DNA of 22,410 nucleotides, taken from the IMG/VR virus record IMGVR_UViG_3300009506_000203. One strand, given 5' to 3'. Position numbers and translations under genes: made by a program. Shown here piece after piece: positions 1,177 through 19,704 of this stretch. Below the pieces are notes generated by a model. It had not been told where the DNA came from, ran no database searches, and saw nothing but the letters and a program-made list of their open reading frames with translations. Numbering within the stretch: the first letter of the stretch is position 1; each line of letters starts with the position of its first letter. Source of the stretch: a virus.

Positions 1177-1180
1177 ACAA

Positions 1181-3811: not shown

Positions 3812-3842
3812 TACACTCCGCCAATTGATCGCAGCTGCGATC
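3812..3842 (+). promoter_or_regulatory. -10-like TACACT (3812-3817) followed by palindrome GATCGCAGCTGCGATC (3827-3842, site 1)
   Basis: The 16-bp perfect palindrome lies in the 106-bp gap before gene 3863. The -10-like hexamer ends 9 nt upstream, and GGGGG (the SD) follows the palindrome. Confidence 0.4.
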
Positions 3843-3862
3843 CCATTTTCCAGGGGGTCACT

Positions 3863-4435
3863 ATGTTCCTTTTGCTTGTACTTCTCAGCGCGTTTCTAGC
3901 GCCCATTCAAACAGCGCAGATTCCGACTGGTGGCTCCATGCGCACGAGTCGCGGCATCTCGACGATCTTCGGCTACTACGGTGACCGCTATGGCCGAAGC
4001 CCAACTCGCTGCCTCTACGATGATGACGGCAACAAGCGCCCCGTTGATCCCGAGCACGATATCGGCATCGCGCACCGCGATCTAGACTGTGGCGCGGTCG
4101 TCTACATCACCAACCTGGAGACCGGGCTGTCGATCCGAGCTGTGGTCGTGGATGCAGGACCGTGGGGCGCGATGTCGAAGAACGCCGCTGGCAAGCCGAT
4201 CTGGTACGTCAAAAAGAACACGAATGCTCGGCCAGGCCGCGATGTCTGCCCTTCGAGGAAGTGCCCGGTCGGCCGCTGGCGCGGGATAGCCGACCTCACG
4301 CCCAAAGCGGCTGAGCTGCTCGGCCACGACGGCTGGGCGAAGATCGTCCTCACCTATGACAAGCGCGACCTGCGCAGCTACAAACGGCTTCAGAAGGCCA
4401 AAGAGGCTCACGAGGACAGGAGGAACCAGAGCTGA
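3863..4435 (+). CDS. secreted RlpA-like double-psi beta-barrel (DPBB) protein
   Basis: The N-terminal signal peptide is MFLLLVLLSAFLAPIQTA. YYGDRYGRSPTRCLYDD...IGIAHRDLDCGAVVYITNLETGLSIRAVVVDAGPWG matches the RlpA DPBB pattern. Confidence 0.6.
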   Translation: MFLLLVLLSAFLAPIQTAQIPTGGSMRTSRGISTIFGYYGDRYGRSPTRCLYDDDGNKRPVDPEHDIGIAHRDLDCGAVVYITNLETGLSIRAVVVDAGPWGAMSKNAAGKPIWYVKKNTNARPGRDVCPSRKCPVGRWRGIADLTPKAAELLGHDGWAKIVLTYDKRDLRSYKRLQKAKEAHEDRRNQS

Positions 4436-4809
4436 TGCGACGCGTGATCATCGAGAGTCCCTACGCCGGCAACATCGAGGAGAACCTGGCCTACGTCCGC
4501 GCAGCGATGAAGGACAGCTTGAGTCGAGGTGAAGCTCCATTCGCATCCCATGCGTTGTACACGCAGCCTGGCGTCCTCAACGACGATGTCCCCGAGGAGC
4601 GCGAATGGGGCATCCATGCGGGGTTCGCATGGCGAGCTGCTGCCGAGGCGACCGTCGTCTACACCGACTACGGCATCTCGAAGGGCATGACATACGGCAT
4701 CGAAGCCGCGCAGAAAATGGGACAGCCGGTCGAGTACCGCACGTTGACGGCCGCAGCCCTGGCAGTGCTGAAGGCGATCAGCGAGTCATCACAGCCAGTA
4801 CCAGCCTAG
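4435..4809 (+). CDS. DUF4406 / nucleoside 2-deoxyribosyltransferase-like protein
   Basis: The N-terminus VIIESPYAGNIEENLAYVRAA resembles the AGPxSG...N motif of NDT-like phage proteins. There is a TGATG overlap with the upstream gene. Confidence 0.4.
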   Translation: MRRVIIESPYAGNIEENLAYVRAAMKDSLSRGEAPFASHALYTQPGVLNDDVPEEREWGIHAGFAWRAAAEATVVYTDYGISKGMTYGIEAAQKMGQPVEYRTLTAAALAVLKAISESSQPVPA

Positions 4810-4845
4810 CTATCACGACTAGTGCCGCCGTGATAGGATTACGGG
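4810..4845 (+). promoter_or_regulatory. inverted repeat CTATCACG-N11-CGTGATAG overlapping the extended -10 TGATAGGAT; leaderless promoter for 4846
   Basis: The arms are at 4810-4817 and 4829-4836. TGA-TAGGAT (4831-4839) ends 6 nt before ATG 4846, and there is no SD. Confidence 0.45.
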
Positions 4846-5037
4846 ATGCCGCGCAAGAGTTCGTCGCCATCCATCCGCACCTACCCCTACGTAGTCCGCT
4901 ACAAGAAGGGCGGGGCGACCTTCATGACGACGAAGAAGGGCGCTTGCGAGATGGCTGGCGTGATGCGCGAGCACTCTCCTCGAATCTACCTTCGGACAAC
5001 TGCGGGGGAATCGCGTATCAGCTGCAAGCGTCGCTAG
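4846..5037 (+). CDS. small basic protein (63 aa), leaderless
   Basis: It has an ATG start, GC3 of about 70%, and a putative terminator downstream. Confidence 0.4.
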   Translation: MPRKSSSPSIRTYPYVVRYKKGGATFMTTKKGACEMAGVMREHSPRIYLRTTAGESRISCKRR

Positions 5038-5080
5038 CTCTAGCTGGACTGAGTTGGCTGCGTGGCTCTAGGCGCGAATA

Positions 5081-5110
5081 GCCCCAGACGGGGCCGAATC
5101 GCGTCTTTTT
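5081..5110 (+). terminator. putative intrinsic terminator (GCCCCAGACGGGGC hairpin ... TCTTTTT)
   Basis: A 5-bp GC stem sits at 5081-5094, and the alternative stem AGACG/CGTCT ends in the T-run 5106-5110. Confidence 0.45.
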
Positions 5111-5114
5111 CGCA

Positions 5115-5146
5115 TTTGTCACACCTCTCTGCTAAAAAGAGGGTCC
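5115..5146 (+). promoter_or_regulatory. conserved cassette TTTGTCAC-N5-TCTGCTAA (copy B) plus SD AAAAGAGGG
   Basis: TTGTCAC is at 5116-5122, TCTGCTAA at 5128-5135, and the ATG at 5147. The spacing is the same as in copy A. Confidence 0.4.
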
Positions 5147-5542
5147 ATGAAAGACATGTTCGATCTGGAATCGAAGGTCCCCGACGAGCCGGAGGCCGAG
5201 ACGACCGAGGAGCAGGCGCCTGAAGGGCAGCCCGCAGCGCAGCCGCCGGGCGGTAACTACATCGTGCAGAACATCGTTCCGATGTTTCCCGGGTGGAGCG
5301 CCTGCTACGGTGACCCTGAAGTGCCCGAAGGCGTGATCACCTTCCCGGTCGTCGCACTCGCGCTGGTCCTGCTGCAACACCCCGACGGCCGCGCTGAGCA
5401 GACGGTCCGACATCTGGTCTCGACGCCGGCCGGGCAGATCGACGACATCGTCGAGTTACCTAACTTCATCTGTGTTGTGTCGCCGGGGCAGTCGCCCGAG
5501 GCGATCATCTCAGCCATGCAGAAGCTGCAAACGGCTTCCTAG
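5147..5542 (+). CDS. hypothetical protein (131 aa, acidic N-terminus)
   Basis: It has an ATG with an SD. Confidence 0.5.
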   Translation: MKDMFDLESKVPDEPEAETTEEQAPEGQPAAQPPGGNYIVQNIVPMFPGWSACYGDPEVPEGVITFPVVALALVLLQHPDGRAEQTVRHLVSTPAGQIDDIVELPNFICVVSPGQSPEAIISAMQKLQTAS

Positions 5543-5556
5543 CAGAGGAGAAACGA

Positions 5557-5865
5557 ATGTCGATCGAACCTGGTCTCTATGAGCACTTCAAAGGCGGCAG
5601 AGTCGTCGTTCTCGGCACTGCCAAGCACTCCGAAGCGCACCACATGCAGCTCGTCGTCTACCACGACGCGAAGAACCCGGATCAACTCTGGGCGCGCCCC
5701 CTGGAGATGTTCGACCAGCGGCTCCAGCGCGGTGAGTACGACGGCCCGCGGTTCTGGCCCATCGAGGAAGACGGGACGCCCATCAAGCGTGCGGCCGAGG
5801 AGAAGAAGGCCGAGCCCGAGCAGCCTCGCCACGACGCTTCCATGGTCGGGCAGCGCCAGTCCTGA
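5557..5865 (+). CDS. DUF1653 family protein
   Basis: PGLYEHFKGGRVVVLGTAKHSE...LVVYHD...LWARPLEMF matches the DUF1653 signature. The SD is GAGGAG. Confidence 0.65.
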   Translation: MSIEPGLYEHFKGGRVVVLGTAKHSEAHHMQLVVYHDAKNPDQLWARPLEMFDQRLQRGEYDGPRFWPIEEDGTPIKRAAEEKKAEPEQPRHDASMVGQRQS

Positions 5866-5883
5866 TCCCACCGAGCCGCTGAC

Positions 5884-6507
5884 ATGGGCGGCGACAACCC
5901 ACTCAAGCGCTGGAATCACCCGAACCACCACGCCGGGTTCCTCGCTGATCTAGCCATCCTGATCTACCGCCGGGGTGCGCGAGAGCGCGCCCTTCCCGGC
6001 GACCGTCCGCCTCCGGCGAGCGACACAGAACCGAAGCGGCTCAAGCGGTACTACAAAGCCGCCAGGGCAACTGTACGCGGCACGAGGACGGTCTGGACCG
6101 CCGAGGACAAACAGCGCTTCCAAGCAAACTGGGGGCGGCTCACGCACAACCCACAGGGGTTGCTGAGCCTTTGGAGTGAGGGCATCTTCCCCTATGGAGA
6201 GCTGGTAGCTGCGGCCGGGCAAATCCTCATCGGCCGCCTACTCGACCTTCAGCCAGCTAAGCGCATTCAGTACCTGAGCAGCGTCCGCGCTTGGGCTACA
6301 ATCACAGAGGACGATGTCTCCGACCTCGAAATACGGTGGCGGATCCGTGACTGGCTCGCGCTGGCCGAGGACGAAGTCACCAACATACCGCCAAACGCCC
6401 GGCTCGCTGCGGCCGCGGCTTGGAGGGTCGGCGCTTACCCGGTTGCTTTCCAGATCGTCGTGGATGCGGCAGCAGCAGTGGTGGAGAAGGTTGGAACACG
6501 ACGTTAA
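5884..6507 (+). CDS. hypothetical protein (207 aa)
   Basis: It has an ATG start and coding-like composition through to the stop. Confidence 0.45.
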   Translation: MGGDNPLKRWNHPNHHAGFLADLAILIYRRGARERALPGDRPPPASDTEPKRLKRYYKAARATVRGTRTVWTAEDKQRFQANWGRLTHNPQGLLSLWSEGIFPYGELVAAAGQILIGRLLDLQPAKRIQYLSSVRAWATITEDDVSDLEIRWRIRDWLALAEDEVTNIPPNARLAAAAAWRVGAYPVAFQIVVDAAAAVVEKVGTRR

Positions 6508-6517
6508 CCGCTGGTTT

Positions 6518-7204
6518 GTGACGCCCTGGCATGACTGCCGCAAAGCAGCTGCATGCTGCGTCGAGCTGGCACGGCTCGTGATGGCAGCTGCCGCGAAGCC
6601 CGCTGGATTTGGGTCGCAACCGGTGAGGGCAGCCAAACACCGCCGCCAGATGACTGATGCGGAGAGGACGATCGAGTGCGCGCTCCAGTTCGTCGAGAGC
6701 TACATCGACGGGACGATCTGCGAGTGGGCTGTCAACGATGACGACTACGACGGTCGCGATCCAATCGCTTGGATCTATGACGCAGCGGCGGAGTACGCCG
6801 ATGACGCATGGCGCGCGGGGTTTCTGCATGGCGAAGCCGATCGTAGTGCAGCCGGGGACATCGCAAAGCTCGGTTGCACCATTGTGCAGAAGTGGGCCGC
6901 AAACTCTACTGGTGGGGGAGCAGTGCCAAACACGATGGTGCAGCAAGCGGCGCAACTAGCGATCGGAGTCCGCGGGAACGTTGACTACGACGAGGTCTCG
7001 GCCGTCGCCTGTCGATGGCGATTCCACGACGCGCTCGGTGATGACACGGCTCCGACCGAGGAGCTGCGGCTGGCCTTCGAGGCTGCGTGGGACATCGGCC
7101 AGTATGAGTTTGCCTACCAGCTATGCCGACCACTCGACGAGGATATGATAGAAGATGAGCATGGAGATCGAGAGGAAGTTCCTGCTGCCGAGTCTGCCGG
7201 CTGA
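6518..7204 (+). CDS. hypothetical acidic protein; start uncertain (GTG 6518 or ATG 6581)
   Basis: The listed ORF 6314..7204 overlaps the upstream gene, but its first ~65 codons look like off-frame S/R/P-rich sequence. The first plausible starts after stop 6507 are GTG 6518 and ATG 6581. Confidence 0.4.
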   Translation: MTPWHDCRKAAACCVELARLVMAAAAKPAGFGSQPVRAAKHRRQMTDAERTIECALQFVESYIDGTICEWAVNDDDYDGRDPIAWIYDAAAEYADDAWRAGFLHGEADRSAAGDIAKLGCTIVQKWAANSTGGGAVPNTMVQQAAQLAIGVRGNVDYDEVSAVACRWRFHDALGDDTAPTEELRLAFEAAWDIGQYEFAYQLCRPLDEDMIEDEHGDREEVPAAESAG

Positions 7205-7622
7205 GATCCGGTCCATCACTCCGCTTACGATCACTCAGGGCTACGTCTTCGTCGAGCCCGGTGAGCTGCGACTGCGCGAGCAGGGCGACATCCAGTTCGT
7301 CGTGACGGTCAAGGACGATGGCAACCTCGCGCGTCGTGAGTGGTCAACAGAGGTCCCACGCTGGGCGTTCGACCTGCTGTGGCGTCAGACTGAGGGGCGT
7401 CGGCTGCGCAAGCTCCGCCGTATCGTCAAGACTGAGAAGCACACTCTCGAAGTCGATGAGTACGTGGGCAGCCTGACTGGCCTGTTCATCCTCGAAGTCG
7501 AGTTCCCGAGCGAGGCAGCCGCCGCAGCGTTCGAGCTTCCATGGTGGGGCCGAGACGCGCAGGAGGTCACGCAGGACCCGGCCTACAAGAACAAGCGGCT
7601 GGCGGTCAGCGGGCGACCTTGA
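7155..7622 (+). CDS. CYTH-domain (triphosphate tunnel metalloenzyme) protein
   Basis: The N-terminal MSMEIERKFLL is the CYTH EIERKFL signature. GAGGA lies 12 nt upstream. There is a 50-nt overlap with the upstream gene. Confidence 0.55.
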   Translation: MSMEIERKFLLPSLPAEIRSITPLTITQGYVFVEPGELRLREQGDIQFVVTVKDDGNLARREWSTEVPRWAFDLLWRQTEGRRLRKLRRIVKTEKHTLEVDEYVGSLTGLFILEVEFPSEAAAAAFELPWWGRDAQEVTQDPAYKNKRLAVSGRP

Positions 7623-7635
7623 TAGACTGCTGAGC

Positions 7636-7920
7636 ATGCTGGAAGGGAAGCGCACGAAATGTCCGGCCGACGTTCGCCGGGACCTCGTTCGGCTGGCGAA
7701 GGTCGGCCGTAGGCTGCGGCGGCAGATCCGCGAACAAGGCTACACCTTCGACACCGCAGCCATGCCAGAGCGGAAGCTCCGACTGCGTGACGAGGAAGCC
7801 GTCCAGCACGGGCAGCGGCTCGTCGCCGAGGCCGAAGTCGCCGTTCGTCGGGGGCAGTGCGCTGCCGCGCGGGACAAGCTCAACGCGGCCGCGGAGTTCC
7901 TGAACTGGGCCGCGCTGTAA
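7636..7920 (+). CDS. hypothetical basic protein (94 aa), leaderless
   Basis: TGATAGACT (7620-7628) ends 7 nt before ATG 7636, and there is no SD. Confidence 0.4.
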   Translation: MLEGKRTKCPADVRRDLVRLAKVGRRLRRQIREQGYTFDTAAMPERKLRLRDEEAVQHGQRLVAEAEVAVRRGQCAAARDKLNAAAEFLNWAAL

Positions 7921-7939
7921 CCAGCTGAAATTACTCCGC

Positions 7940-7965
7940 TGTATCATCGATCGTAGCCACGATCG
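7940..7965 (+). promoter_or_regulatory. TGTATCAT -10-like element followed by palindrome site 3 (GATCGTAGCCACGATC, 7949-7964)
   Basis: The near-palindrome has GATCG/CGATC arms. TATCAT (7942-7947) is immediately upstream. Confidence 0.4.
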
Positions 7966-8036
7966 GGTTGAATAGCGGGCGGCCAGCAGCCGTCTGACTC
8001 TTGAACGCGCACGGTCCCCGAGGGGACGGAGGCAAG

Positions 8037-8267
8037 ATGAACAAGCCGAATCGAGTCGAGAACGTCGAGGAGTTCTGGTCGGACGCTCCGCCCACGCCGA
8101 GCCCGCGGTTGGTCTACTGGCAGGCGCGCATCGATGCCGGCTGGAGGCCCAACAAGCGCATCAGCAAGATGGGCTACTACAACGCCGCTGAGTTCTTCGG
8201 CGTCTGGATCTGGGAGTACATCAACGTCATCGCGCCGCGTCTCCAGGAGGCCCACGATGTTCCGTGA
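8037..8267 (+). CDS. hypothetical protein (76 aa)
   Basis: The SD CGGAGG (8027-8032) precedes ATG 8037, and a small hairpin GTCCCC/GGGGAC sits just upstream. The listed ORF 8001..8267 is an upstream extension in the same frame. Confidence 0.5.
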   Translation: MNKPNRVENVEEFWSDAPPTPSPRLVYWQARIDAGWRPNKRISKMGYYNAAEFFGVWIWEYINVIAPRLQEAHDVP

Positions 8268-9651
8268 CGAGCCCGACCTCGACTTCTCGAACCTGCCCGT
8301 CATCGAGCTGGAGTACACGGTCCCCGAGGACGACACCAGCCTGTTCCTCGTTCCGGCCGCGCGGCTGCCCTACCTGCTGGAGCGTATCAAGAAGCTCCAG
8401 AGCCGCCAGAAGCGGCTCGCGAAGGTTGGGCCGCTGGCGGACGCGGCGTTGATCACTGTCGAGGTGACCGCGCGGCAGCTCCGGCCGCCACGGTGCATCT
8501 TCTGCGGGCACGACCAGGTCCCGGCGCACTACAACGACGGCCGCTGCAAGTACGCCGCGGGGTACTGGCGTCCCGGCTCGCCGCGCGTCTACTACCTGTG
8601 CCGCGTCGAGGGTCCGCGCGCCAAGCTCGCCGACTGGGAGTTCATCGCGACTCTCCAGCACGAGGATGCAGGAACCATCCTCCGTGCTGTTCCGGGCGCT
8701 GAGATCGCCGAGGGTGAGCTGGACCGCTTTCGCAACGTGAAGCCGCATTGCGAGCACTGCAACGCTCGCCGCTACCGCAAGGACTCGTTCGTGGTCCGGC
8801 ACGATGACGGTACTCTCCGTCAGGTCGGCCGCACCTGCCTGGGCAAGTACCTGGGTGGCGGCGTCGATCCGAAGGCTATCGCGCGGCTCGCCGAGCTGCT
8901 CATCGAGGCCCGCGGCGCCGCCGATGAGGAGCCCGAGCTGGGCTGGGGGTCCGGCGGCCCGCTCGTCGGCCCGATCAGCGACTTCCTCATCTTCGTCGCT
9001 GCCTGCATCCGGCTCGAAGGCTGGCTGCCGCGCAGCAAGGCCGGGGACGACGAGGTCCCGACCGCAGACCGCGCCTGGGCGCTTCAGTTCCCCTGGTCCC
9101 AGAAGGGTCGTGAGGAAGCGGAGCGCTTCCGCAACCAGATCGAGGACCGCGATGTCGAGCTGGCCCAGGCCGCACTCGACTGCGTTCGGCGCGAACTGAA
9201 CGAGCACAACACCCGCAGCGACTATGAGCACAACCTGCGCGTCGCCTGCGCTGCTGATGTCGTCAAGGGCCGCACCGCTGGCCTGGCGGCCTCGGTGGTG
9301 ACCTGGTACGAGCGGCGCCTGGTCCACGAGCAGCGCCGCCAGGCCGCGCAGAGAGCGGCTCGAAGGGCTGCCAAGCACTCTGAGCACGTCGGCGCAGTCG
9401 GCGACATGATCAACGTCGTCGTGACCGTCCGCGGGATCTCCGATGGCTTCACCGACTACGGTGCCTACCACTTCCACCGCTTCGTCGATGTGAACGACAA
9501 CAACATCATTTGGCGCTCGACCCGTGAGCGGCTCGAAGTCGGCGCGACCTACGAGCTGCGCGGCAAGATCAAGGAGCACGGTGAGTGGAAGGGTATCAAG
9601 CAGACCCAGCTGACTCGGTGCCGGGTCCTCAACAAGATCGACAAGAACTAG
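8257..9651 (+). CDS. large hypothetical protein with C4 zinc ribbons (464 aa)
   Basis: GGAGG lies 6 nt upstream of ATG 8257. It has CIFCG...C and CEHCN...C motifs and a C-terminal beta-rich domain. The upstream part of listed ORF 8134..9651 is S/T-rich off-frame sequence. Confidence 0.55.
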   Translation: MFRDEPDLDFSNLPVIELEYTVPEDDTSLFLVPAARLPYLLERIKKLQSRQKRLAKVGPLADAALITVEVTARQLRPPRCIFCGHDQVPAHYNDGRCKYAAGYWRPGSPRVYYLCRVEGPRAKLADWEFIATLQHEDAGTILRAVPGAEIAEGELDRFRNVKPHCEHCNARRYRKDSFVVRHDDGTLRQVGRTCLGKYLGGGVDPKAIARLAELLIEARGAADEEPELGWGSGGPLVGPISDFLIFVAACIRLEGWLPRSKAGDDEVPTADRAWALQFPWSQKGREEAERFRNQIEDRDVELAQAALDCVRRELNEHNTRSDYEHNLRVACAADVVKGRTAGLAASVVTWYERRLVHEQRRQAAQRAARRAAKHSEHVGAVGDMINVVVTVRGISDGFTDYGAYHFHRFVDVNDNNIIWRSTRERLEVGATYELRGKIKEHGEWKGIKQTQLTRCRVLNKIDKN

Positions 9652-9661
9652 GAGCAAGCTG

Positions 9662-10871: not shown

Positions 10872-10882
10872 AGCTCTCAATC

Positions 10883-11509: not shown

Positions 11510-11550
11510 CGAATCGATCCTATCACCTGCCGATGATAGAGTGGAAGCTC
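11510..11550. promoter_or_regulatory. 41-bp divergent region: inverted repeat CTATCA-N8-TGATAG whose two arms are the extended -10 elements of back-to-back leaderless promoters
   Basis: On the minus strand, GTGATAGGAT is followed 7 nt later by ATG 11509. On the plus strand, GATGATAGAGT is followed 8 nt later by GTG 11551. Confidence 0.45.
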
Positions 11551-12866: not shown

Positions 12867-12870
12867 AGCG

Positions 12871-13086
12871 TCACTCTCCGATGCGACGGATGCAGCCGAG
12901 GTGAATCAAGTCGGTGAAGACCTGACTGGCAGCTTCTTCGGAGCCTTGATGGCCAAGCGCTGCGTCCCGCGAGAGATCTCCGAAGACCAACACTGCCCGC
13001 GTGCAATTGCGTCCCCGAGCGAGCTGCTCGGCTTCATCGACTGCGCGCATCGGGTTCTTGTAGCGGATTGCTTGTCTCCGAGCCAT
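12871..13086 (-). CDS. small hypothetical protein (71 aa), leaderless
   Basis: The -10-like TAGACT ends 6 nt before ATG 13086, and palindrome site 2 lies just upstream. Confidence 0.45.
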   Translation of the reverse strand: MARRQAIRYKNPMRAVDEAEQLARGRNCTRAVLVFGDLSRDAALGHQGSEEAASQVFTDLIHLGCIRRIGE

Positions 13087-13120
13087 AGCGTGAGTCTACA
13101 CCATGATCGCGGCTGCGATC
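13087..13120 (-). promoter_or_regulatory. palindrome site 2 (GATCGCGGCTGCGATC, 13105-13120) followed by GTGTAGACT promoter
   Basis: The palindrome abuts the stop of the upstream minus gene. On the minus strand, the -10 is 6 nt downstream of the palindrome. Confidence 0.45.
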
Positions 13121-13770
13121 TACTTTCGAGGGCGGCGTGGCCGGAAAGAGACGCGTGCCTGGACGGGCTCGCAGTTATAGCCCCATTCCGACAGTGAGTT
13201 GCCGTCCGTCCGAAGGCACGCGGCTGGGACTCGCTTCGAGAGCACACACATGTCCTGGGACGGGTCGGTCCCGTGCCGGCCGTGCTGGATCGCGTAGTCT
13301 CGGGACGTGGTCACCCAGTCGCCGTTGTTGATTTCGCGGACATCGCAGGGAACGGCGCGGTACATCCAGACGCGCGCATCTGGCCGACCTCGGACCCGGC
13401 TCGCGACGTGGAAAGACTCCCAATCGGTCGGTCCGTAGGCGTACCAGTCGGGGCGCCGATAGACATCGTCCGGGTAGACACCGTTGTCGGTCAGATCGTA
13501 GAGCGGCGCGCCTTCCTCACCCGCGGGCCGGTGTTGCATCCCGTAGTCATCCGGCGCCGCGCCGAACAGCCCGCGTAGGCCGCGGACCAAGCCACGTAGC
13601 AACCCGAAGCCGCGGAACTGGGGCCGCTGCTCCGCGTAGCTCGACGCGACGACGTAGCCGTTGGCGATCTTCTCGGCGTGTCGCTCGGCCTGGTCAGGAA
13701 ACTGGTAGACGGCGACCTGTCGAGGGCCGATACCAGGGCGATACTTGAACACCTTGTAGAAGGTTGCCAT
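13120..13770 (-). CDS. hypothetical protein (216 aa)
   Basis: The internal ATG at 13770 has a GAGGA SD and forms a TGATG overlap with the NUDIX stop. The listed ORF 13120..13842 is an upstream extension in the same frame. Confidence 0.5.
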   Translation of the reverse strand: MATFYKVFKYRPGIGPRQVAVYQFPDQAERHAEKIANGYVVASSYAEQRPQFRGFGLLRGLVRGLRGLFGAAPDDYGMQHRPAGEEGAPLYDLTDNGVYPDDVYRRPDWYAYGPTDWESFHVASRVRGRPDARVWMYRAVPCDVREINNGDWVTTSRDYAIQHGRHGTDPSQDMCVLSKRVPAACLRTDGNSLSEWGYNCEPVQARVSFRPRRPRK

Positions 13771-14168
13771 CAGTTCCTCACGAACAGCTCGACGCCCGGG
13801 TGCAGCGGCTGTGGAAGTTGGCCTGGATAGAACCACCCCCAAGCGTCATTCTCCCAGTTGAGTCGCGGCTGCCATCGAGCTGCGGCCCCGGTTGGGATGG
13901 TCGCGATGACGGTCGTGAAAACCCCGCGCGGTGTGCCATCCCTACGGAGGGTGCGCGATGGATGAAAGCTCACGAGCTGCATCGGGGGTAGACTGCCGGT
14001 CTCCTCCTGGAACTCTCGAAGCGCCGTCGCGATTAGGTCGGTATCGCCTGCATCTTCGCGGCCGGCTGGAATCGACCACCAGCCGGGCTCGCTGACCTGC
14101 TGGGACCGTCGGACAAGCAGGACGGCGCCATCATCTCGGACGAGAAGGATGCCAGCGCACTGAGGCAT
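13770..14168 (-). CDS. NUDIX hydrolase
   Basis: REFQEETG is the core of the Nudix box, preceded by PAGREDAGDTD. It is about 130 aa long. Confidence 0.7.
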   Translation of the reverse strand: MPQCAGILLVRDDGAVLLVRRSQQVSEPGWWSIPAGREDAGDTDLIATALREFQEETGSLPPMQLVSFHPSRTLRRDGTPRGVFTTVIATIPTGAAARWQPRLNWENDAWGWFYPGQLPQPLHPGVELFVRN

Positions 14169-14773
14169 CAGACGACCTCACGCAGCTCCGGCGCGTTCGC
14201 GTCCAGCCACCCGATCGCGCGTCGGCTGGCGTCGTTGATGATCGCGCCCTGCTCGATGGTCCTCGACGAGAGATTGAACTGCTTCTCGGCCACAGCGATA
14301 TCGGTCTCGTTGCACTTGTAGGCGCGCAGCAGCTCGGCGAGCTTGTGACCGGCCGGAACGTAACCGTAGCGCCAGTAGTGCATCTCCAGGTTGCAGCGGT
14401 AGGCATCGGCCTCGTAGTGCGCACGACCGGAGGAGCGCAGCAGGTACTTCCACACGAAGGTCTGGCCTTCCTTGTGGTACTGGTAGACGTGCTGGTGCTC
14501 GTGGACAGCTGTCGTGATCTGGTCCCACAAGCTCCACGCCTCGGCTTCAGCGTCGGGCACTTCCCCAACAGTGAAGGGGATGTAGATGCGATTACCGAGT
14601 GTGGTCGCGAACCTCGTCATGAAGGTCTTTACGTCCATCGCATTGATGAGGCGCAGGGCCTGTGCGATGACCTTCATCTCCAGCGCGTCGGAGCGCTTGA
14701 TGACGCGCGACTCGTAGTGGCCACTCATATAGGCCCAGAAGTCCCTGACCACCTCTGGAGTTGGATCAGCCAT
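14168..14773 (-). CDS. HExxH-motif protein, putative zinc metallopeptidase (201 aa)
   Basis: It has HEHQH with a downstream Glu (EADAY). The internal ATG at 14773 has a GGAGGG SD. The upstream part of listed ORF 14168..14968 is R/S/K-rich sequence. Confidence 0.5.
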   Translation of the reverse strand: MADPTPEVVRDFWAYMSGHYESRVIKRSDALEMKVIAQALRLINAMDVKTFMTRFATTLGNRIYIPFTVGEVPDAEAEAWSLWDQITTAVHEHQHVYQYHKEGQTFVWKYLLRSSGRAHYEADAYRCNLEMHYWRYGYVPAGHKLAELLRAYKCNETDIAVAEKQFNLSSRTIEQGAIINDASRRAIGWLDANAPELREVV

Positions 14774-14774
14774 C

Positions 14775-15275
14775 CTATTGGCCCTCCGCCGCGTGTTCAT
14801 CTGGTGGCGGTGCGGGGGACCAGGGCAGCGGCTGCGGCGCTTCCTTCTGCACCGTGTCCCAGTCACTGAGCGGTGCCGGTGAATCAGCTGGCCGCTTCTC
14901 CATCTTGGCGAGGCCATGCGGCTTCTCTTTGAGCGCGTGGAGCTTCGCTTCGTAGTCCCGTCTCTCAACTCCGGTCCGCGGCGGTTCGGTCCCGATCATC
15001 GAGATGGCTTCGTCGAGGTCGCGTTCCACCAGGGACAGTCGGTAGTAGAGGTCCGCACGGGCACGGTCAGCATCTATGAGCTTCTGACGAACCGCGTGGT
15101 AGGCGCGCTCAGCTCGTTGATCGGTCCATTCCCGTGTCTCCTTGACTTGCTCCTTTGCCTCGTTCCCTTTGCGGCGCGCAGCACGACTATCGAAGTAGGC
15201 GTTGGCAGCGCCAGCCACTGCGATGACCAGTGCAATCCACGGAGCGTATTTCTGTGCGGCCTCTTTTTTCGGCAT
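14775..15275 (-). CDS. membrane-anchored coiled-coil protein (166 aa)
   Basis: ATG 15275 has a GGGAGGGG SD. The N-terminal TM segment is YAPWIALVIAVAGAANAYF. Confidence 0.5.
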   Translation of the reverse strand: MPKKEAAQKYAPWIALVIAVAGAANAYFDSRAARRKGNEAKEQVKETREWTDQRAERAYHAVRQKLIDADRARADLYYRLSLVERDLDEAISMIGTEPPRTGVERRDYEAKLHALKEKPHGLAKMEKRPADSPAPLSDWDTVQKEAPQPLPWSPAPPPDEHAAEGQ

Positions 15276-15286
15276 TTCCCCTCCCA

Positions 15287-15544
15287 CTAAGTCGGCACGA
15301 ACGCGACCCTTTGAAACATGAATGCCGGATGCGTAAACCGCACCGTCAGCGGCGACCAGCGCGTCCAGGTTGTGCCGTCACCCTGGTGGTACTCGACGAG
15401 TGCCTGCGCCGTGAAGACGTGATCCTTGACATCGAGCAGCTTCCACCACTCCCTCTGCCCGCCAACTATCGCTGGTGTCACACCGTAGTCGATCACGTCA
15501 CCAACCTGGACATCCTTACCGCTGCGTGCATCGATAACTCTCAT
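15287..15544 (-). CDS. small hypothetical protein (85 aa)
   Basis: The internal ATG at 15544 has a GAGGA SD. The upstream part of the listed ORF is R/G-rich. Confidence 0.4.
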   Translation of the reverse strand: MRVIDARSGKDVQVGDVIDYGVTPAIVGGQREWWKLLDVKDHVFTAQALVEYHQGDGTTWTRWSPLTVRFTHPAFMFQRVAFVPT

Positions 15545-15552
15545 CGGTGTCC

Positions 15553-16371
15553 TCAGTACGCCAACAGCCGCCAGTAGATGCGCGGCGCCCCAGAGTTGAG
15601 TGTGGTCTTGATGAAAAGCCACTGGACATTGGGCGGGACGACCAGATCGAAGACCGCCTCGCCGCTTGGCGCTGCCATCGTCTGCGCGGTCGTGAGATCG
15701 AACTCGAAGGTGGGAGTCAACCCTGTCCACGGGCTCTGCGCCGCTGTCAACTGCACATCGCAGCTCCCCGCATGCGTGCTTCGTTTGAACAGCACCCGAA
15801 GCCGCTTTCGCCCAGAGATCGCGAGGACCCTGACGACGTTGGTGCCAGCTGGCACGATCATCTGGCTCGGAGATTCTGAGATCGGGCCCAAAGCAGTAGG
15901 CACGTTCGTGGGCGGCCGAAGATAGGCTATGAGTTGGAGCTTTGGGTAGACCGGCGTGACATCGTCACCGGAGGTGCCGCCGAAGATCGGAACGCCGTTG
16001 GGGTCGTTCCCCATCGCGAAGCCGAATGGCGTGCTGACGCTCGTGCCCACCGGGTAGTAGGCGTCGTCGAATCTCTGCATCGGAACCGACCGTCCTCGCC
16101 ACGGTCCGGGGATGTCTCCGATGAAGGGTGCTTCTGGCGTGACTATCTGCTGAGAGGCGATCCCCCACGCGTTCGATTGCACCGCGAACGTGTCCAGGTC
16201 GCTGTTGGGGTGGATGGCAATGCCTGCCAGGGAGAAGTTCTGAAGCCCTGTGTCGAGGCTTTGTGGATCCCCCGATGCGCCACCGTTTCCCCAGTTCGTC
16301 AGGGAGAATGCGAAGCGGTCATAGCCCTTGATGAGCGCCGTAGAGGGATCGACGATGTATTCGAGTGTCAC
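15553..16371 (-). CDS. G/S/T/P-rich beta-type protein (272 aa), possibly structural or secreted
   Basis: It has a GTG start with an AGAGGA SD and sits in a tightly packed operon. Confidence 0.5.
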   Translation of the reverse strand: MTLEYIVDPSTALIKGYDRFAFSLTNWGNGGASGDPQSLDTGLQNFSLAGIAIHPNSDLDTFAVQSNAWGIASQQIVTPEAPFIGDIPGPWRGRSVPMQRFDDAYYPVGTSVSTPFGFAMGNDPNGVPIFGGTSGDDVTPVYPKLQLIAYLRPPTNVPTALGPISESPSQMIVPAGTNVVRVLAISGRKRLRVLFKRSTHAGSCDVQLTAAQSPWTGLTPTFEFDLTTAQTMAAPSGEAVFDLVVPPNVQWLFIKTTLNSGAPRIYWRLLAY

Positions 16372-16374
16372 GCG

Positions 16375-16587
16375 TCAGTCCTCTTTCGCACGGCGCCGCA
16401 TGACGATACGACGAGCTGCTGCCAGCGCGTTGCTACACTTCCCCGGCGCGCCGCCACTCATGTGCCATCCAGTGCGATCATCCTTGATGGTGAACCTGCA
16501 CGCCCCATCGGTGCTTCGGACCGTGATGAAATAGTTGCCGACCTGGTCCTCAGCGTAGAAGTTACCCAGCTGTCGTCGCTTGCGCAT
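16375..16587 (-). CDS. small basic protein (70 aa)
   Basis: ATG 16587 has AGGAG 8 nt upstream. Confidence 0.4.
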   Translation of the reverse strand: MRKRRQLGNFYAEDQVGNYFITVRSTDGACRFTIKDDRTGWHMSGGAPGKCSNALAAARRIVMRRRAKED

Positions 16588-16589
16588 TG

Positions 16590-16853
16590 TCACTTCTCCT
16601 CGCAGGTCGGTAAACAGGTGTGCCCCTCTGGCGTCTCACAACAGACGAACGGCTGCTCGTCCTTCGAGCTGGTCACCCCGGAGCAATCCATGTTCGTGTC
16701 CCAGCGCTTGTCGCTGCCGCAGATCTCCGCAACGTTGCCGTTGCAGCGGGTCGCCGTCGGTTCGCAGTTGTCCTTCTTCTCCGTGGCTACGTTCCACAGA
16801 GGGCACCCTGACAGCATGCTCAGGGTCAGGATGATGATCAGCGCGCGCAGCAT
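16590..16853 (-). CDS. Cys-rich secreted lipoprotein
   Basis: The signal peptide MLRALIIILTLSMLSGC carries a lipobox. The mature part has 9 Cys. Confidence 0.55.
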   Translation of the reverse strand: MLRALIIILTLSMLSGCPLWNVATEKKDNCEPTATRCNGNVAEICGSDKRWDTNMDCSGVTSSKDEQPFVCCETPEGHTCLPTCEEK

Positions 16854-16906
16854 GTCTCAACATATCACGCTGCGATCACTCACGCGACCGCGATCAGATC
16901 AGCTTG

Positions 16907-17224
16907 TCACCACTTCTTCACGCACTTGCGCAGCTCGTCCGGGCAGCTTGGCTCACGAGCAAAGCAGCTGCGAACTGACTGGAGTGCGCGAAGCGCGTTG
17001 TCGCGATCTTCCAGCTTCACACGAGCGAGCGCTGTGTCCACGAGGCAAACCCACTCGGCTGATGACGCCACGCTCAGACCGTGTGAGACCGTCGTGACCG
17101 GCAGCCCGCTAGACTTCTGAACCGCCTTGGGATACCGCATCCCCCACTTCGACTCGATGTGGAACTCCATGTCCGGGTTCTTCGCCTTGCGGATCTTGAC
17201 CCCGGTCGCTTCCTTCTTCGCCAT
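16907..17224 (-). CDS. hypothetical protein (105 aa)
   Basis: It has an ATG with an AGGAG SD. Confidence 0.45.
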   Translation of the reverse strand: MAKKEATGVKIRKAKNPDMEFHIESKWGMRYPKAVQKSSGLPVTTVSHGLSVASSAEWVCLVDTALARVKLEDRDNALRALQSVRSCFAREPSCPDELRKCVKKW

Positions 17225-17225
17225 G

Positions 17226-17528
17226 CTATCTCCTGCGGGGACCGCTCAGCTTGAGCTTGTGCGTGAGGGGCGGCTGGTTCTGCCACCGCGCTGCAATCGG
17301 TGGAGGCTCCGGGATCGTGATCTCCTCACCGACACGCTGGCAGCTGCATCGCTTGATGATGAGTTTGCAGTTCCGCATCTCGCGGTTGTACTTGACCATG
17401 TCGCGGACCAGCGTCCGCAGCGCGTGCCGTCCACGACGGACGGCTTGCTTCATCGTGTCGCCCTCGACGGTCGTTTCGATGTTCGCTCGCGTCGGCTTGG
17501 TGCCGCAGTAGACGATCCCTTCGTACAT
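17226..17528 (-). CDS. hypothetical protein (100 aa)
   Basis: The internal ATG at 17528 has AGGAG 7 nt upstream. The upstream part of listed ORF 17226..17582 is P/S-rich. Confidence 0.45.
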   Translation of the reverse strand: MYEGIVYCGTKPTRANIETTVEGDTMKQAVRRGRHALRTLVRDMVKYNREMRNCKLIIKRCSCQRVGEEITIPEPPPIAARWQNQPPLTHKLKLSGPRRR

Positions 17529-17536
17529 GTTGGCTC

Positions 17537-18034
17537 CTACCGGTGGTGGCGGCGACCGCTCAGCTCGACTGGTGGCGGACATGCGACCGGGCGGGGCTTG
17601 CGCTCCTTCTTCAACCGCTGGAAGCCAGCAGCGCGCCCTCTCTCAATGCCGGCCTTCACGCCCTTCGTCTGCGGGACCTCACCGAGGATCCGCTCAGGTG
17701 GAATGGGCTCGCTGGTCATGTAGAACTCAGGCAGGTTCGGCGACCGCAACGGCCGGTAGACCGGGCAGTGCTCTTTGGTCCCGACGATCCTCACCTTGAG
17801 GATGGTTAGGGGCTCGTCGGGGCAGCCCTCCCTGACGGCCCGCTTCGCGATGTGCTCTGCGGCGTAGTTCGGGCTCCGCGTGAACCAGATGTCGCCCCGC
17901 GGGCCCTTCCTCAATCCCTGCTTCTTGATGAGGCTCGCACGGAGCTTGTAGGTCCCGTGGTAGCCCACGAAGTCACACTTGCCGAAGGGCTGGACCTCGA
18001 CCCACTTGCCTAGCTGGCGGCGTCGCCTTGACAT
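17537..18034 (-). CDS. minimal Tpt1/KptA-like (NAD-dependent ADP-ribosyl/2'-phosphotransferase fold) protein with a basic C-terminal tail
   Basis: VGYHGTYKLRASLIKKQGLRKGPRGDIWFTRS...EPLTILKV parallels KptA LYHGTASRFLDEIKKQGL...RHYVHLS...SPVILTV. The N-terminal RNA-binding lobe is absent. The start is leaderless at ATG 18034. Confidence 0.4.
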   Translation of the reverse strand: MSRRRRQLGKWVEVQPFGKCDFVGYHGTYKLRASLIKKQGLRKGPRGDIWFTRSPNYAAEHIAKRAVREGCPDEPLTILKVRIVGTKEHCPVYRPLRSPNLPEFYMTSEPIPPERILGEVPQTKGVKAGIERGRAAGFQRLKKERKPRPVACPPPVELSGRRHHR

Positions 18035-18073
18035 GGGCCCCAGTATACACGGTCTCGGATCGCAGCTGTGATC
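18035..18073 (-). promoter_or_regulatory. leaderless promoter GTGTATACT plus palindrome site 4 (GATCGCAGCTGTGATC, 18058-18073)
   Basis: On the minus strand, TATACT ends 7 nt before ATG 18034. The palindrome lies 10 nt upstream of the -10, in the -35 position. Confidence 0.45.
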
Positions 18074-18246
18074 GAGCGGCCTGCGACCGGGCCCGCGGTC
18101 GAACCCGCGGCCGAGACATCGAGACAGCGATACCGGAGCGGGGCCATCCCCCCGAATCGCCACGGGGTGGCGGCACAGTTCTGTGCAGGCCCACTGAGAT
18201 GTGCTCTACTGGTGGCGGAGACGTTCGAGGTGGCTGGGTGCCGCGG

Positions 18247-18284
18247 CGCCCGCCAGGCTGAGCTGGTCTGGCGGGCGTCATTTT
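18247..18284 (+). terminator. intrinsic terminator-like hairpin (10-bp stem CGCCCGCCAG/CTGGCGGGCG, then TCATTTTG)
   Basis: It is a perfect inverted repeat with a T-run, and no plus-strand CDS lies upstream. Confidence 0.45.
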
Positions 18285-18440
18285 GCCGGCCTTCGAGCCG
18301 CCCGAGCTGGCCGCCCCGCGCAGCTCGTGTGGGCTCCTGTCGCGCCCATGGCCGAGCTGGTTGGGCCGCGCGGCCAGCGCCCGCGACGAGGCCACAGAGG
18401 CGCTCCTGGAGCGTCCTGGAGGGCATGCACTATACGCCCG

Positions 18441-18720
18441 ATCGGAAGATCCAATTTTGGGGGTCTAACTACCTTGATCGGGCCCTTTTTCGGCCCGTTT
18501 CCCCTTTGATTACCGGCCTGTGTAGGTGATCGTTACTCAGGGTTAGATCCCTCCCCTACCCCTTATAGATCCGCTGGTACATCTATCAACTTTTCATAGA
18601 TTTACTAGCCGAAACTAAGGAGGGTATAGGGACTTCTAACCTTGTAGATTTCGGGTGTTTTCAGTAGGGATCTCACGGAGATCAAGGTCCCCCTCCAATT
18701 GTTAGTGGTACGGCGCGTCA
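18441..18720. repeat. AT-rich (about 45-50% GC) repeat island
   Basis: It contains TCTAAC twice and GGTTAGA as inverted copies. It has three YRTAGATYY direct repeats, a GATCTC-acg-GAGATC palindrome, and an orphan AAGGAGG. Confidence 0.4.
18479..18505 (+). terminator. hairpin CGGGCC-ctttttc-GGCCCG followed by TTTCCCCTTTGATT
   Basis: It has a 6-bp GC stem and a T-rich tail, at the edge of the AT-rich island. Confidence 0.4.
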
Positions 18721-18796
18721 AAGTTGAAATGTAGTCGTGGCAACGGGTAGTACACTGCAAGAAAGTCACTGGCCCTTGCGGCCGGTGACTGTGAAT

Positions 18797-18868
18797 GTCG
18801 TTGACGTGCTATGTCAACGTCGCACGCTGTCGTTGCACGTCGCGAGCGTGCCGTGTACGATCCCAACG
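18797..18868 (+). promoter_or_regulatory. operator repeats plus a sigma70-like promoter TTGCAC-17-TACGAT for the RHH-AP2 gene
   Basis: Direct repeats TGTCGTTGACGT (18797-18808) and TGTCGTTGCACGT (18829-18841) flank the inverted copy GTCAACG (18813-18819). The -10 at 18856-18861 ends 7 nt before ATG 18869. Confidence 0.45.
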
Positions 18869-19561
18869 ATGCCGCCGAAGCACCGTCTCACGGTTCGCAT
18901 GGAGGATGACCTCTATGACTACCTGCATCAACGCGCGGCACGAAATTTCCGCACGGCACCCGACGAAGTGCAGGCGATCGTATTTGCGCTGAGGGCTGCT
19001 GAGCGCGCTGCGGATACCTCTCCGTTGCCGTCGTCCGAGCTGCCGGCCGTGCTGACGGGCGCTTCCGACGCGGGACCTGAAGCGGAGCCCGAGGCGCCCC
19101 CCGAGCCCGGTGTGACCCACAAGCTCCGCGGCCCGCGCGGCACCCTCTCGGGCTACTTCGGCGTACACCGGTACGGGAAGCGTTGGATAGCCAAGCTGAC
19201 CAGAAATGGTGTAGCGACAAAGGTCGGTGTGTTCGACGACCCGGAGGAAGCTGCCCAAGCCTACGACGACGCCGTCAGGACCAGCGGAACTGGCGGCCGG
19301 CTCAACTTCCCGACGGAGCAGGAGGAAGCTGCACGGTCCAGCGGCGGCTTGGAGACGCTGCCTGACTGGATCCGCGTGCAGGGGCCCGGAGCGTCGGACA
19401 TCCCCCCAGAGCATCTTCCTGAAGCTCTACGGCGTGGTCTCATCGCGTCCGGCGAGATGGACGTGCCGCCAGTCGAGGACCACTACGAGGCGCCCTCTGA
19501 TGAGGACGCGGACCTGGTCCCGGACCCGGACATCGACCCCGATCCGCCCTCCCTCCACTGA
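18869..19561 (+). CDS. ribbon-helix-helix + AP2 DNA-binding domain regulator
   Basis: The N-terminal RLTVRMEDDLYDYLHQRAARNF is an RHH beta-strand and helix. GYFGVHRYGKRWIAKLTRNGVATKVGVFDDPEEAAQAYDDAV is an AP2 domain. The upstream 44 codons of listed ORF 18737..19561 cover the operator repeats. Confidence 0.6.
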   Translation: MPPKHRLTVRMEDDLYDYLHQRAARNFRTAPDEVQAIVFALRAAERAADTSPLPSSELPAVLTGASDAGPEAEPEAPPEPGVTHKLRGPRGTLSGYFGVHRYGKRWIAKLTRNGVATKVGVFDDPEEAAQAYDDAVRTSGTGGRLNFPTEQEEAARSSGGLETLPDWIRVQGPGASDIPPEHLPEALRRGLIASGEMDVPPVEDHYEAPSDEDADLVPDPDIDPDPPSLH

Positions 19562-19570
19562 GGCTGTGTG

Positions 19571-19603
19571 GGCGCCCCTCACTTGGGGGAAGCGAGGGGC
19601 GCC
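19571..19603. terminator. 10-bp GC stem-loop (GGCGCCCCTC/GAGGGGCGCC) between convergent genes
   Basis: It is a perfect inverted repeat with no clear U-tract. It may act as a bidirectional terminator. Confidence 0.4.
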
Positions 19604-19688
19604 GATAGGGTGCTGGGTTTCAGCCACCGGGCGGGCGGCGTTGACTCTTGATCTCTAGCAGAAAGTGTGCGGGGCGCGCAATTGAATT

Positions 19689-19704
19689 GATCGTGTGAGC
19701 GATC
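19689..19704. promoter_or_regulatory. palindrome-family site 5 (GATCGTGTGAGCGATC)
   Basis: It has the GATCG-N6-CGATC arms and overlaps the stop of the minus gene 19703..19951. Confidence 0.3.

Follow-up and report, generated by a model that had tools for sequence, protein, structure and literature searches.

We analysed a 22,410-nucleotide (nt) viral contig from a metagenome (IMG/VR record IMGVR_UViG_3300009506_000203; hereafter, the window) and found that a 16-bp palindrome with the consensus GATCGCAGCTGCGATC recurs in its non-coding DNA. The palindrome is very probably the binding site of one regulatory protein, given its recurrence beside predicted promoters and its presence in the same places in three diverged relatives. 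We consider it probable that the site serves as operator for a DNA-binding protein that acts as a dimer, chiefly in repression, and controls a subset of the promoters. The element provides a concrete cis-acting sequence for transcription control in an uncultured clade of high-G+C phages in which almost all genes are of unknown function. It would mark co-regulated promoters and define promoter positions, several of them leaderless, and it could be used as bait to pick out the regulator from the orphan gene products; which close relatives have it and which lack it could indicate groups that share immunity or a temporal program. The finding is solid, useful for annotation and unsurprising in kind, and on its own leaves the known principles of phage gene regulation unchanged.

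Recurrence of the palindrome

The pattern GATCG-N6-CGATC occurs exactly at positions 3827, 7949, 13105 and 19689 of the window (sites W1, W2, W3 and W5; Table 1). Dinucleotide shuffles predict 0.06 copies, and a count of four was reached in none of 100 of them; as the shuffles keep dinucleotide content only, GATC (165 in the window versus 121.7 ± 9.9 expected, around 1.4-fold enriched) is partly under-counted in that expectation. A fifth copy at 18058 (W4) reads GATCGCAGCTGTGATC and has one mismatch to the pattern. In an unbiased palindrome scan with 5-nt arms and gaps of 0–10 nt, GATCG with a 6-nt gap ranked first among all palindromes of the window (four copies, versus two for the runners-up). 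Each site contains two invariant GATC sequences 12 bp apart. We did not find the exact 16-mer in the searchable literature.

All five full sites lie within the 9.2% of the window that is non-coding (on the basis of contig gene calls plus three added open reading frames (ORFs)), except that 1–2 nt of 13105-13120 and of 19689-19704 are shared with the stop codon of the neighbouring minus-strand gene. The same non-coding DNA holds two half-sites, annotated as GCTGCGATC at 16869-16877 and a second, direct CCGCGATC at 16888-16895, and five of the six GATCGCAG octamers in the window are non-coding. The length of stop-free stretches was uninformative as a coding test in this high-GC DNA. The initial annotation had the coordinates and sequences exactly as we find them, and was right that the copies are far above chance, that they lie outside coding sequence and that a half-site exists at 16869-16877; its ten fixed positions, claimed for five copies, hold for four.

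Conserved positions in related phages

A scan of viral contigs with the consensus 16-mer returned 26 stretches, with a single copy in every contig except IMGVR_UViG_3300035128_000105 (61.5 kb), which has five (loci L010 and L015). L010 is syntenic with window positions 1200-7100 at around 55% amino-acid identity, and L015 is extended by locus L002. The remaining relatives were reached through homologues of a 464-amino-acid protein encoded downstream of W2, which are 69% identical in L028 (NCBI GCA_975970675.1; fully syntenic), 66% in L030/L031, 47% in L029 and 37–45% in the more distant L032, L033 and L034. We refer to these phages as W (the window), B (L028), C (L030), D (L010, L015, L002 and L029) and E (L032); D is counted as one phage on the basis of G+C content and a shared sample source, not of sequence overlap. 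Two further relatives are F (L052 and L157), a viral contig of at least 150 kb with DNA 75% identical to that of B over a vault-protein gene, and G (L144), which is syntenic with window positions 738-7030.

In D, the same palindrome scan again placed GATCG with a 6-nt gap first, with eight copies; these exact matches lie in 33.7 kb, one of them inside a gene, and L002 has one further match. Across 16 sites in W, B, C and D, 20 of the 32 half-sites read GATCGCAG, a count in which positions 1–5 (the GATCG arms) were fixed by the search pattern and in which the five L010/L015 sites, found with the exact 16-mer, do not bear independently on the central bases. The six inner positions, which the initial annotation had too loosely taken as free, are constrained, and the consensus is GATCGCAGCTGCGATC, a perfect palindrome that is its own reverse complement.

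The proteins of B, C and D are 47–69% identical to those of the window, and yet individual sites keep their places. The orthologue of W1, L028:6102 (GATCGCAGCTGTGATC), lies 21 nt before the orthologous gene (74% amino-acid identity), versus 20 nt in the window. W2 is kept upstream of the same gene at L028:9910, L030:503 and L029:2573 (58 nt further upstream in the last case), and in an alignment of these regions (A1) the arms of the palindrome are among the few invariant upstream columns, whereas the surrounding intergenic DNA diverges. Judged by sequence comparison, this positional conservation is the strongest evidence of selection on the element, and sites 3827 and 7949 appear to be under purifying selection.

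The retrieved parts of F and G have no intergenic copies (both copies in F are inside long ORFs), E has no full site, and L033 and L034 have no copy. Presence in W, B, C and D and absence from the available parts of the close relatives F and G would be the pattern expected of a fast-swapping regulator–operator pair. A degenerate motif scan of viral contigs revealed F (L052), and among the matches listed were mostly chance single copies. A metagenome scan for the motif followed by N3-10, TAnnnT, N5-7 and ATG returned three unrelated single matches and no new relatives.

Position relative to candidate promoters

The sites fall into three arrangements. In class I, the palindrome is followed after 3–10 nt by a TAnnnT hexamer and, 6–7 nt further on, by an ATG without a ribosome-binding site (RBS), a layout that, read from sequence, is the signature of a leaderless transcript. 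This flank (N3-10-TAnnnT-N5-7-ATG) is present at 6 of the 16 clade sites, compared with 0 of 116 look-alike 16-mers in unrelated viral contigs. The spacings to the −10-like hexamer are 3, 5, 5, 6, 6 and 10 nt, and the dyad centre lies at about −23 to −30. The layout at W3 is the same as that at L015:13452, and the 71-amino-acid ORF that follows W3 (12871-13086) was missed by the contig gene caller and has no family match; the ATG after W4, at 18034, heads a leftward gene block that reaches to about 13120. The direct half-sites precede TATGTT and ATG 16853 in the class I manner, with the hexamer 5 nt downstream of the core GATCGCAG (4 nt downstream of the 9-mer GATCGCAGC).

Class II sites adjoin a −35-like hexamer, with a long leader downstream. 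At 7949, L028:9910 and L030:503, this leader is 72–75 nt in length and contains the hairpin GGTCCCCGAGGGGAC and an RBS; L002:10136 (TTGACG) probably belongs to the same class. The block at 7968-7998 is a putative promoter, for which an alternative reading of the extracytoplasmic function (ECF) type would be TGAATA-N16-CGTCT. In class III, the palindrome lies 14–21 nt before an RBS-led start codon, with no −10 between; at W1, no TAnnnT occurs between the site and ATG 3863. Four sites (13105, 19689, L010:878 and L010:6564) overlap the stop codon of the upstream gene, in part because the frequent 5′ flanking T forms a stop codon with the GA of the motif.

These arrangements change several assignments in the initial annotation. 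It had placed sites 2 and 4 at the promoters before 13086 and 18034, which is correct for site 4, the other being site 3 (13105). On the plus strand, the −10-like hexamer that it read ahead of 13105 is simply the minus-strand TAGACT in mirror image and no separate promoter, and the site at 7949 most likely abuts the −35-like TTGAAT instead of lying at +1. Its suggestion that one repressor may govern the whole window goes too far, as the palindrome is missing from at least five leaderless-type promoters predicted there (before 1252, 4846, 7636, 10883/11509 and 19951).

The occurrence of the same −10 architecture without the motif indicates that the palindrome adds regulation to some promoters and is not part of the core promoter; in Actinobacteria, −10-only promoters are sufficient. 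We rejected the motif as a fixed −35 substitute or a promoter for a phage sigma factor on the basis of its variable spacing, its symmetry and its occurrence before RBS-led genes.

Table 1 Palindrome sites, candidate promoters and associated features (positions without a locus name are those of the window)
Feature	Position	Strand	Sequence	Context
W1	3827-3842		GATCGCAGCTGCGATC	Class III; perfect consensus; between plus-strand genes 3169-3756 and 3863-4435, 20 nt before ATG 3863
−10-like hexamer	3812-3817	+	TACACT	9 nt before W1; conservation in L028 partial (alignment A2)
RBS	3852-3857	+	AGGGGG	Gene 3863-4435; TTTCCAGGGG conserved in L028
W2	7949-7964		GATCGTAGCCACGATC	Class II; 72 nt upstream of ATG 8037
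Promoter-like block	7968-7998	+	TTGAAT-N19-TCTGAC	Starts 3 nt after W2; conserved in four phages (alignment A1)
Leader hairpin	8013-8027	+	GGTCCCCGAGGGGAC	Conserved; followed by GGAGG and ATG 8037
W3	13105-13120		GATCGCGGCTGCGATC	Class I; 1-nt overlap with stop codon of gene 13120-13770 (−)
Candidate leaderless core	13084-13098	−	TAGACT (13093-13098), 6 nt, ATG (13084-13086)	Hexamer 6 nt downstream of W3
Direct half-sites	16870-16895	−	GATCGCGG (16888-16895), GATCGCAG (16870-16877)	Starts 18 nt apart
Candidate extended −10	16859-16864	−	TATGTT	Preceded by TGA; followed by 5 nt and ATG 16851-16853 (gene 16590-16853)
W4	18058-18073		GATCGCAGCTGTGATC	Class I; one mismatch; left edge of 864-bp non-coding region
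Candidate leaderless core	18032-18047	−	TATACT (18042-18047), 7 nt, ATG (18032-18034)	Hexamer 10 nt downstream of W4
W5	19689-19704		GATCGTGTGAGCGATC	Weakest centre; between convergent genes 18899-19561 (+) and 19703-19951 (−); 2-nt overlap with stop codon of the latter
Class I sites, D	L010:878, L010:6564, L015:1301, L015:13452			
Class II sites, B and C	L028:9910, L030:503		TTGAAT/ATGAAT, N19, TCTGAC	As at W2; −35-like hexamer 3 nt after site; TCTGAC conserved
Class II site, D	L029:295		TTGACT-17-TATTCT	75-nt leader
Class III sites, B and D	L028:6102, L015:10792			
Predicted promoters without site	4846, 10883/11509, 19951		GTGATAGGAT/GTGATAGATT	Extended −10
Predicted promoter without site	7636		TAGACT	
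Predicted promoter without site	1252		TTGTCA-N11-TAnnnT	
Second promoter-like motif	1220-1254, 5116-5149, 20822-20855; L028:3506, L010:10589(−), L052:13301		TTGTCA-N11-TAnnnT	7–9 nt before ATG
Vault-like gene	2-958; L028:785-3436; L052:10664-13792			883 amino acids in L028

Search for the regulator

Pfam and PHROG scans identified no recognisable DNA-binding domain in any ORF of the window, which is compatible with a regulator gene outside it, as the initial annotation had suggested; many of the window ORFs are orphans. Three sets of candidates were rejected. The 464-amino-acid protein (phrog_2319) encoded downstream of 7949 was modelled with a predicted local distance difference test (pLDDT) score of 82.8 and has a C-terminal oligonucleotide/oligosaccharide-binding (OB) fold like that of RPA/SSB, and is thus a replication or single-stranded-DNA protein and not a reader of a double-stranded operator. 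The product of 13120-13770, which matches a PHROG annotated as ‘ParB C-terminal domain’ (phrog_2579), has no ParB helix-turn-helix part and no PDB relative; the match covers profile positions 335-469 only, the non-ParB C-terminal part. A basic protein of 94 amino acids (7636-7920) and nine other small ORFs gave no helix-turn-helix or ribbon-helix-helix signal, even at E ≤ 1.

In phage D, the palindrome L029:2573 separates the OB-fold gene from a divergent gene (L029:2277-2534) for an 85-amino-acid CopG-type ribbon-helix-helix protein (RHH_1, 22.7 bits). As a short palindrome such as each GATC would suit a ribbon-helix-helix dimer, this protein is an attractive candidate regulator. The same phage has a gene for a D12-class adenine methylase (L002:9163-10077; Pfam, 122 bits), the best PDB relatives of which are DpnM, Escherichia coli Dam and T4 Dam; GATC specificity is suggested by these nearest solved relatives. 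A copy of the motif lies 59 nt downstream of the methylase gene. The window has no methylase.

A proposed operator for a dimeric protein

We propose that a two-fold symmetric protein (dimeric or a dimer of dimers), most likely encoded by the phage, would read the 16-bp palindrome, and that this one protein would control a subset of promoters in the early or DNA-metabolism region. At the candidate leaderless promoters (13105, 18058, 16870-16895 and four in a relative), the site would fill the −35/spacer space contacted by RNA polymerase, so that bound protein would block initiation and act as a repressor. At 3827, the site lies between a possible −10 and the RBS, a position like that of the lac operator; if TACACT is used as a −10, W1 would span about +3 to +20. 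At 7949, where the site abuts the −35-like hexamer, the same protein could repress or activate, and one regulator may do both, because an activator could equally well bind where the class II dyad is centred (about −44 to −49). Steric occlusion accounts better than a promoter element in fixed register for the three geometries and for the range of distances to the −10. The enrichment, non-coding restriction, conserved positions and overlap with promoter-like elements support the original idea of a repeated operator that defines a regulon.

The constant GATCG arms, together with a sequence-specific favoured centre, point to base readout and not to bare structure. Base-specific recognition by a symmetric protein is favoured by the direct half-sites, by the persistence of the same 16-mer in phages with 30–50% protein difference and by its location upstream of the predicted starts. 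The half-sites at 16870 and 16888 cannot pair with each other as a hairpin, but could bind protein subunits.

Several observations count against the proposed operator. No cognate regulator was found in the window or in common among the motif-bearing phages, and the ribbon-helix-helix protein of D has no homologue among 5.8 billion proteins or in the window. The promoters at the sites are predicted ones; a scan for sigma-70 consensus promoters gave no match at the sites. W1 and the sites B1 (phage B) and D4 (phage D) have no recognisable −10 downstream and a weak one upstream, and no target promoter was found for W5 in its convergent gap. The invariance of the GATCG arms is partly an effect of the search, and the motif-bearing genomes examined, around 82 kb in total, are all incomplete. 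Finally, base changes at three sites preserve pairing: C6:G11 is replaced by T6:A11 at 7949, a compensatory change, and two G-to-T changes (18058 and 19689) keep G–U pairing on the plus strand.

Alternative explanations

Although we regard it as rather unlikely, the protein could be an activator, or a dual regulator that mainly activates, with a dimer upstream of or overlapping the −35 recruiting RNA polymerase to middle-class promoters, much as Mu Mor/C act, or lambda CI at PRM. Five sites (7949, L028:9910, L030:503, L029:295 and L002:10136) abut the upstream edge of a −35-like hexamer (TTGAAT, ATGAAT, TTGACT or TTGACG) and so have their dyad centred near −44 to −49, where activators classically bind; no −35 accompanies the leaderless promoters, and the genes concerned are those of DNA metabolism and replication (for example, the OB-fold protein), which are typical middle genes. 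However, leaderless promoters have the dyad centred between about −23 and −30, which is too close, and with its 7-bp spread too variable, for activation from one face of the helix; identical −10-type promoters occur without the motif; −10-only promoters suffice in Actinobacteria; and at 3827, L028:6102 and L015:10792 the site precedes an RBS with no promoter downstream to activate. A role as nucleic-acid structure, whether as an RNA hairpin (a terminator, or a processing or stabilizing stem-loop resembling repetitive extragenic palindromic (REP) elements or T4 promoter stem-loops) or as an extruded DNA hairpin, is improbable. The perfect 6-bp stem with a 4-nt loop, the four sites over the stop codon of an upstream gene, the location of W5 at a gene 3′ end in a convergent gap and the pairing-preserving changes would fit it, but the hairpins are weak (−2.2 to −7.6 kcal/mol), no site is followed by a U-tract or terminator-like tail, and Rfam, tRNA and consensus terminator scans found nothing at the sites. 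The outer five pairs are invariant and never covary, and so offer no covariation evidence for pairing as distinct from sequence; the sixth pair, across four orthologous sites, shows one compensatory change, one wobble and one break, and pairing of the inner bases is disrupted at L029:2573 and L002:10136. A leaderless transcript would start downstream of the element and so not include it, a structure would not require the same 16-mer in phages as diverged as these, and the direct half-sites could not form one together.

The two GATC sequences lead to two further readings. In one, to which we give little credence, the operator is gated by methylation: the regulator, possibly a ribbon-helix-helix dimer of dimers, would bind only one methylation state of the two GATC, and a phage Dam-type enzyme, such as that encoded in D directly upstream of one copy, would methylate both. 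If this were true, the promoters would switch as phage DNA goes from unmethylated through hemimethylated to fully methylated, giving a replication-coupled timer for early and middle genes in a large phage of the actinobacterial type; given the D methylase, a methylation-sensitive operator is conceivable, if speculative. In the other reading, which is very improbable, the GATC pair is itself functional as a Dam-methylation-dependent element of replication, packaging or strand discrimination, as at P1 pac or oriC/SeqA. Every copy has its two GATC 12 bp apart, the Dam-like methylase gene of D is followed by a motif copy, GATC is over-represented in the window (with nine clustered in non-coding DNA at 18440-18862), and E has about 12 TTGATCG repeats in a non-coding region beside a portal gene. 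The conserved bases nonetheless extend past GATC (to GATCGCAG), the window has no methylase, and the sites are dispersed, one per promoter, tracking −10 hexamers and start codons and not clustering. A chance or compositional artefact of a high-GC genome rich in GATC and CGATCG has in its favour the 1.4-fold excess of GATC and the look-alike 16-mers seen as lone copies in many unrelated contigs and as two copies within long ORFs of F, but is already effectively refuted by the shuffles, the top rank in the palindrome scan, the non-coding location of all window copies and the conserved positions across phages.

Comparison with known systems

The proposed operator can be set beside several described elements. 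The operators of dimeric phage repressors and Cro, and LexA-type boxes, are palindromes of 14–17 bp over the −35/spacer or +1, with several promoters per protein. The element resembles them as a palindrome with two equivalent half-sites (GATCGCAG in 20 of 32) that tolerates degeneracy; unlike them, it has no tandem operator triplets beside a repressor gene, its sites, each a single copy, span more than 16 kb, and the search of the window ORFs identified no helix-turn-helix repressor. The OB operators of KorB (ParB family) in plasmid RK2 are palindromes at many promoters, at variable distance from the −35 and including positions directly upstream of it. The three geometry classes here recall that variable distance, although the replicon is a phage and not a plasmid, and the window has no ParBc, ParB N-terminal or helix-turn-helix protein. 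In Dam-sensitive regulation (Mu mom/OxyR, pap/Lrp and SeqA at paired GATC), GATC likewise lies in the binding site; here two are about one helical turn apart in the predicted site and D has a Dam-family methylase, but the conserved sequence reaches beyond GATC. To our knowledge, Dam/SeqA systems are not the rule in actinobacteria, the probable host group. The element differs from terminators, REP elements and T4 promoter stem-loops in having no stable stem with a U-tract and no covarying stem.

The initial annotation had called the network stoperator-like. The stoperators of Cluster A mycobacteriophages (L5 and Bxb1) are asymmetric 13-mers that are bound by monomers and oriented to transcription (PMC9283540, PMC6550527). 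The two are alike in several respects: a short conserved site recurs at intervals of a few kb, in small gaps between the genes of an actinobacteriophage-like genome; some copies overlap a predicted early promoter; its presence varies among close relatives as immunity specificities do; and its density (five full sites and two half-sites in 22.4 kb) is one that a stoperator network would have. The defining asymmetry and orientation bias are absent, however, the site being a symmetric 16-mer, and Pfam and PHROG scans of the window ORFs found no repressor domain of the L5 gp71/Bxb1 gp69 type. In Cluster O mycobacteriophages, a 17-bp repeat, TGTTCGGNNNCCGAACA (TGTTCGG-N3-CCGAACA), is present in more than 30 copies per 70 kb, and its binding factor and function are not known (PMC4351075). 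It resembles our element as a palindrome with invariant arms and many copies per genome, mostly between genes or at gene starts, and conserved throughout the cluster. Its sequence and layout differ (7-3-7 versus 8-0-8 here), its copy number is higher, about a third of its copies in Corndog are inside genes, and no tie to leaderless −10 hexamers has been reported (PMC4351075).

Overall, the element most closely matches the repeated sites used by global regulators of phages and plasmids, the nearest analogies being the Cluster A stoperators, the Cluster O palindrome, Cro/CI- or LexA-type operators and the KorB OB sites. As it does not have the defining features of a stoperator or a terminator, and no ParB-family partner was found in the window, we classify it as an operator regulon, a known kind of control network that would be real but fairly ordinary for phages.

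Gene content and likely host

The window is a complete contig with a G+C content of 63%; the same DNA was also assembled from run SRR14699975, and locus L027, offset by 334 nt, was the source of the contig gene calls. By megablast, the whole window had no nucleotide match among GenBank phages, and its protein-level matches are distant only, to large phages of Actinobacteria and others. Most of its ORFs are orphans. The recognisable products point to a phage DNA-metabolism or early region: an MVP-like C-terminal part, a YpsA/DprA-like protein, a nucleoside deoxyribosyltransferase-like protein (DUF7768), DUF1653, CYTH, NUDIX, an HNH endonuclease, a kinase/MazG-like protein and the 464-amino-acid PHROG 2319 protein. 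The last has distant homologues in large phages that infect Streptomyces, Rhodococcus, Gordonia and other hosts, and portal, capsid and tail genes are found in relatives further removed from the contig. An actinobacterial host is probable; a profile search of genome contigs with the phrog_2319 alignment as query gave no match and hence no link to a host or prophage.

A second promoter-like motif, TTGTCA-N11-TAnnnT, is kept in position in four phages before the YpsA/DprA-like gene (ORF 1252). The consensus of the mycobacterial RecA-independent DNA-damage promoter is tTGTCRgtg-N8-TAnnnT, and the spacing of the two is the same. The mycobacterial promoter is bound by PafBC (PMC6789036). The motif hints at an actinobacterial host and at damage-inducible phage genes. 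Another inverted repeat, CTATCAC(G)...(C)GTGATAG (4810-4845 and 11510-11532), overlaps the extended −10 TGATAGGAT at the leaderless-type promoters of 4846 and of the divergent pair 11509(−)/11533(+), and may be a second type of operator.

The hairpin GGTCCCCGAGGGGAC with its RBS (window 8013-8036) precedes the OB-fold gene in the window, L028, L030 and L029; in F (L157:2622-2650), it precedes a different gene, for an SNF2-type helicase, and it looks like a portable translation or regulatory cassette. At the conserved start position of the OB-fold gene, the window has a 76-amino-acid ORF (8037-8267) that is absent from B, C and D (alignment A1), and the 464-amino-acid gene begins only at 8257.

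In E, about twelve TTGATCG(C/G/T)(A/G)CT repeats, direct and inverted, occupy L032:4800-5170 within an 820-bp non-coding region that adjoins the portal gene, a Phage_Mu_F head-protein gene and an unannotated gene for a 561-amino-acid protein. They have the TGATCG core in common with the window motif and recall the clusters of TGATCA/G Dam sites in the P1 pac site. The D methylase is part of a replication module (L002:493-10077) that also encodes a thymidylate kinase, a helicase and a 1,599-amino-acid fusion of uracil-DNA glycosylase, 3′–5′ exonuclease and family-A polymerase, interrupted by an intein with a LAGLIDADG domain.

The 864-bp non-coding region between W4 and the HNH gene (18035-18898) has a lower G+C content in its right half and contains, besides the nine GATC within 18440-18862, several TAGATC/TAGATT-like repeats. 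It has a counterpart in none of the relatives examined and may serve as an origin or packaging site, or mark an end of the genome. In the leftward block, 13120-13770 (MYRAV...TTS...SEW) and 17537-18034 (GYHGT...FTRSP) have patterns that, read by eye only, are reminiscent of ADP-ribosyltransferases. ORF 1252-1827 (YpsA/GTP-binding-like; 57% identical to its counterpart in L010) was missed by the contig gene caller and overlaps gene 1718-2275 by 110 nt; together with ORF 961-1176, it shows that the apparent 759-bp gap at 959-1717 is coding. The phage genome also carries a gene resembling that of the major vault protein (MVP_shoulder and Vault_3), which is kept in several relatives.

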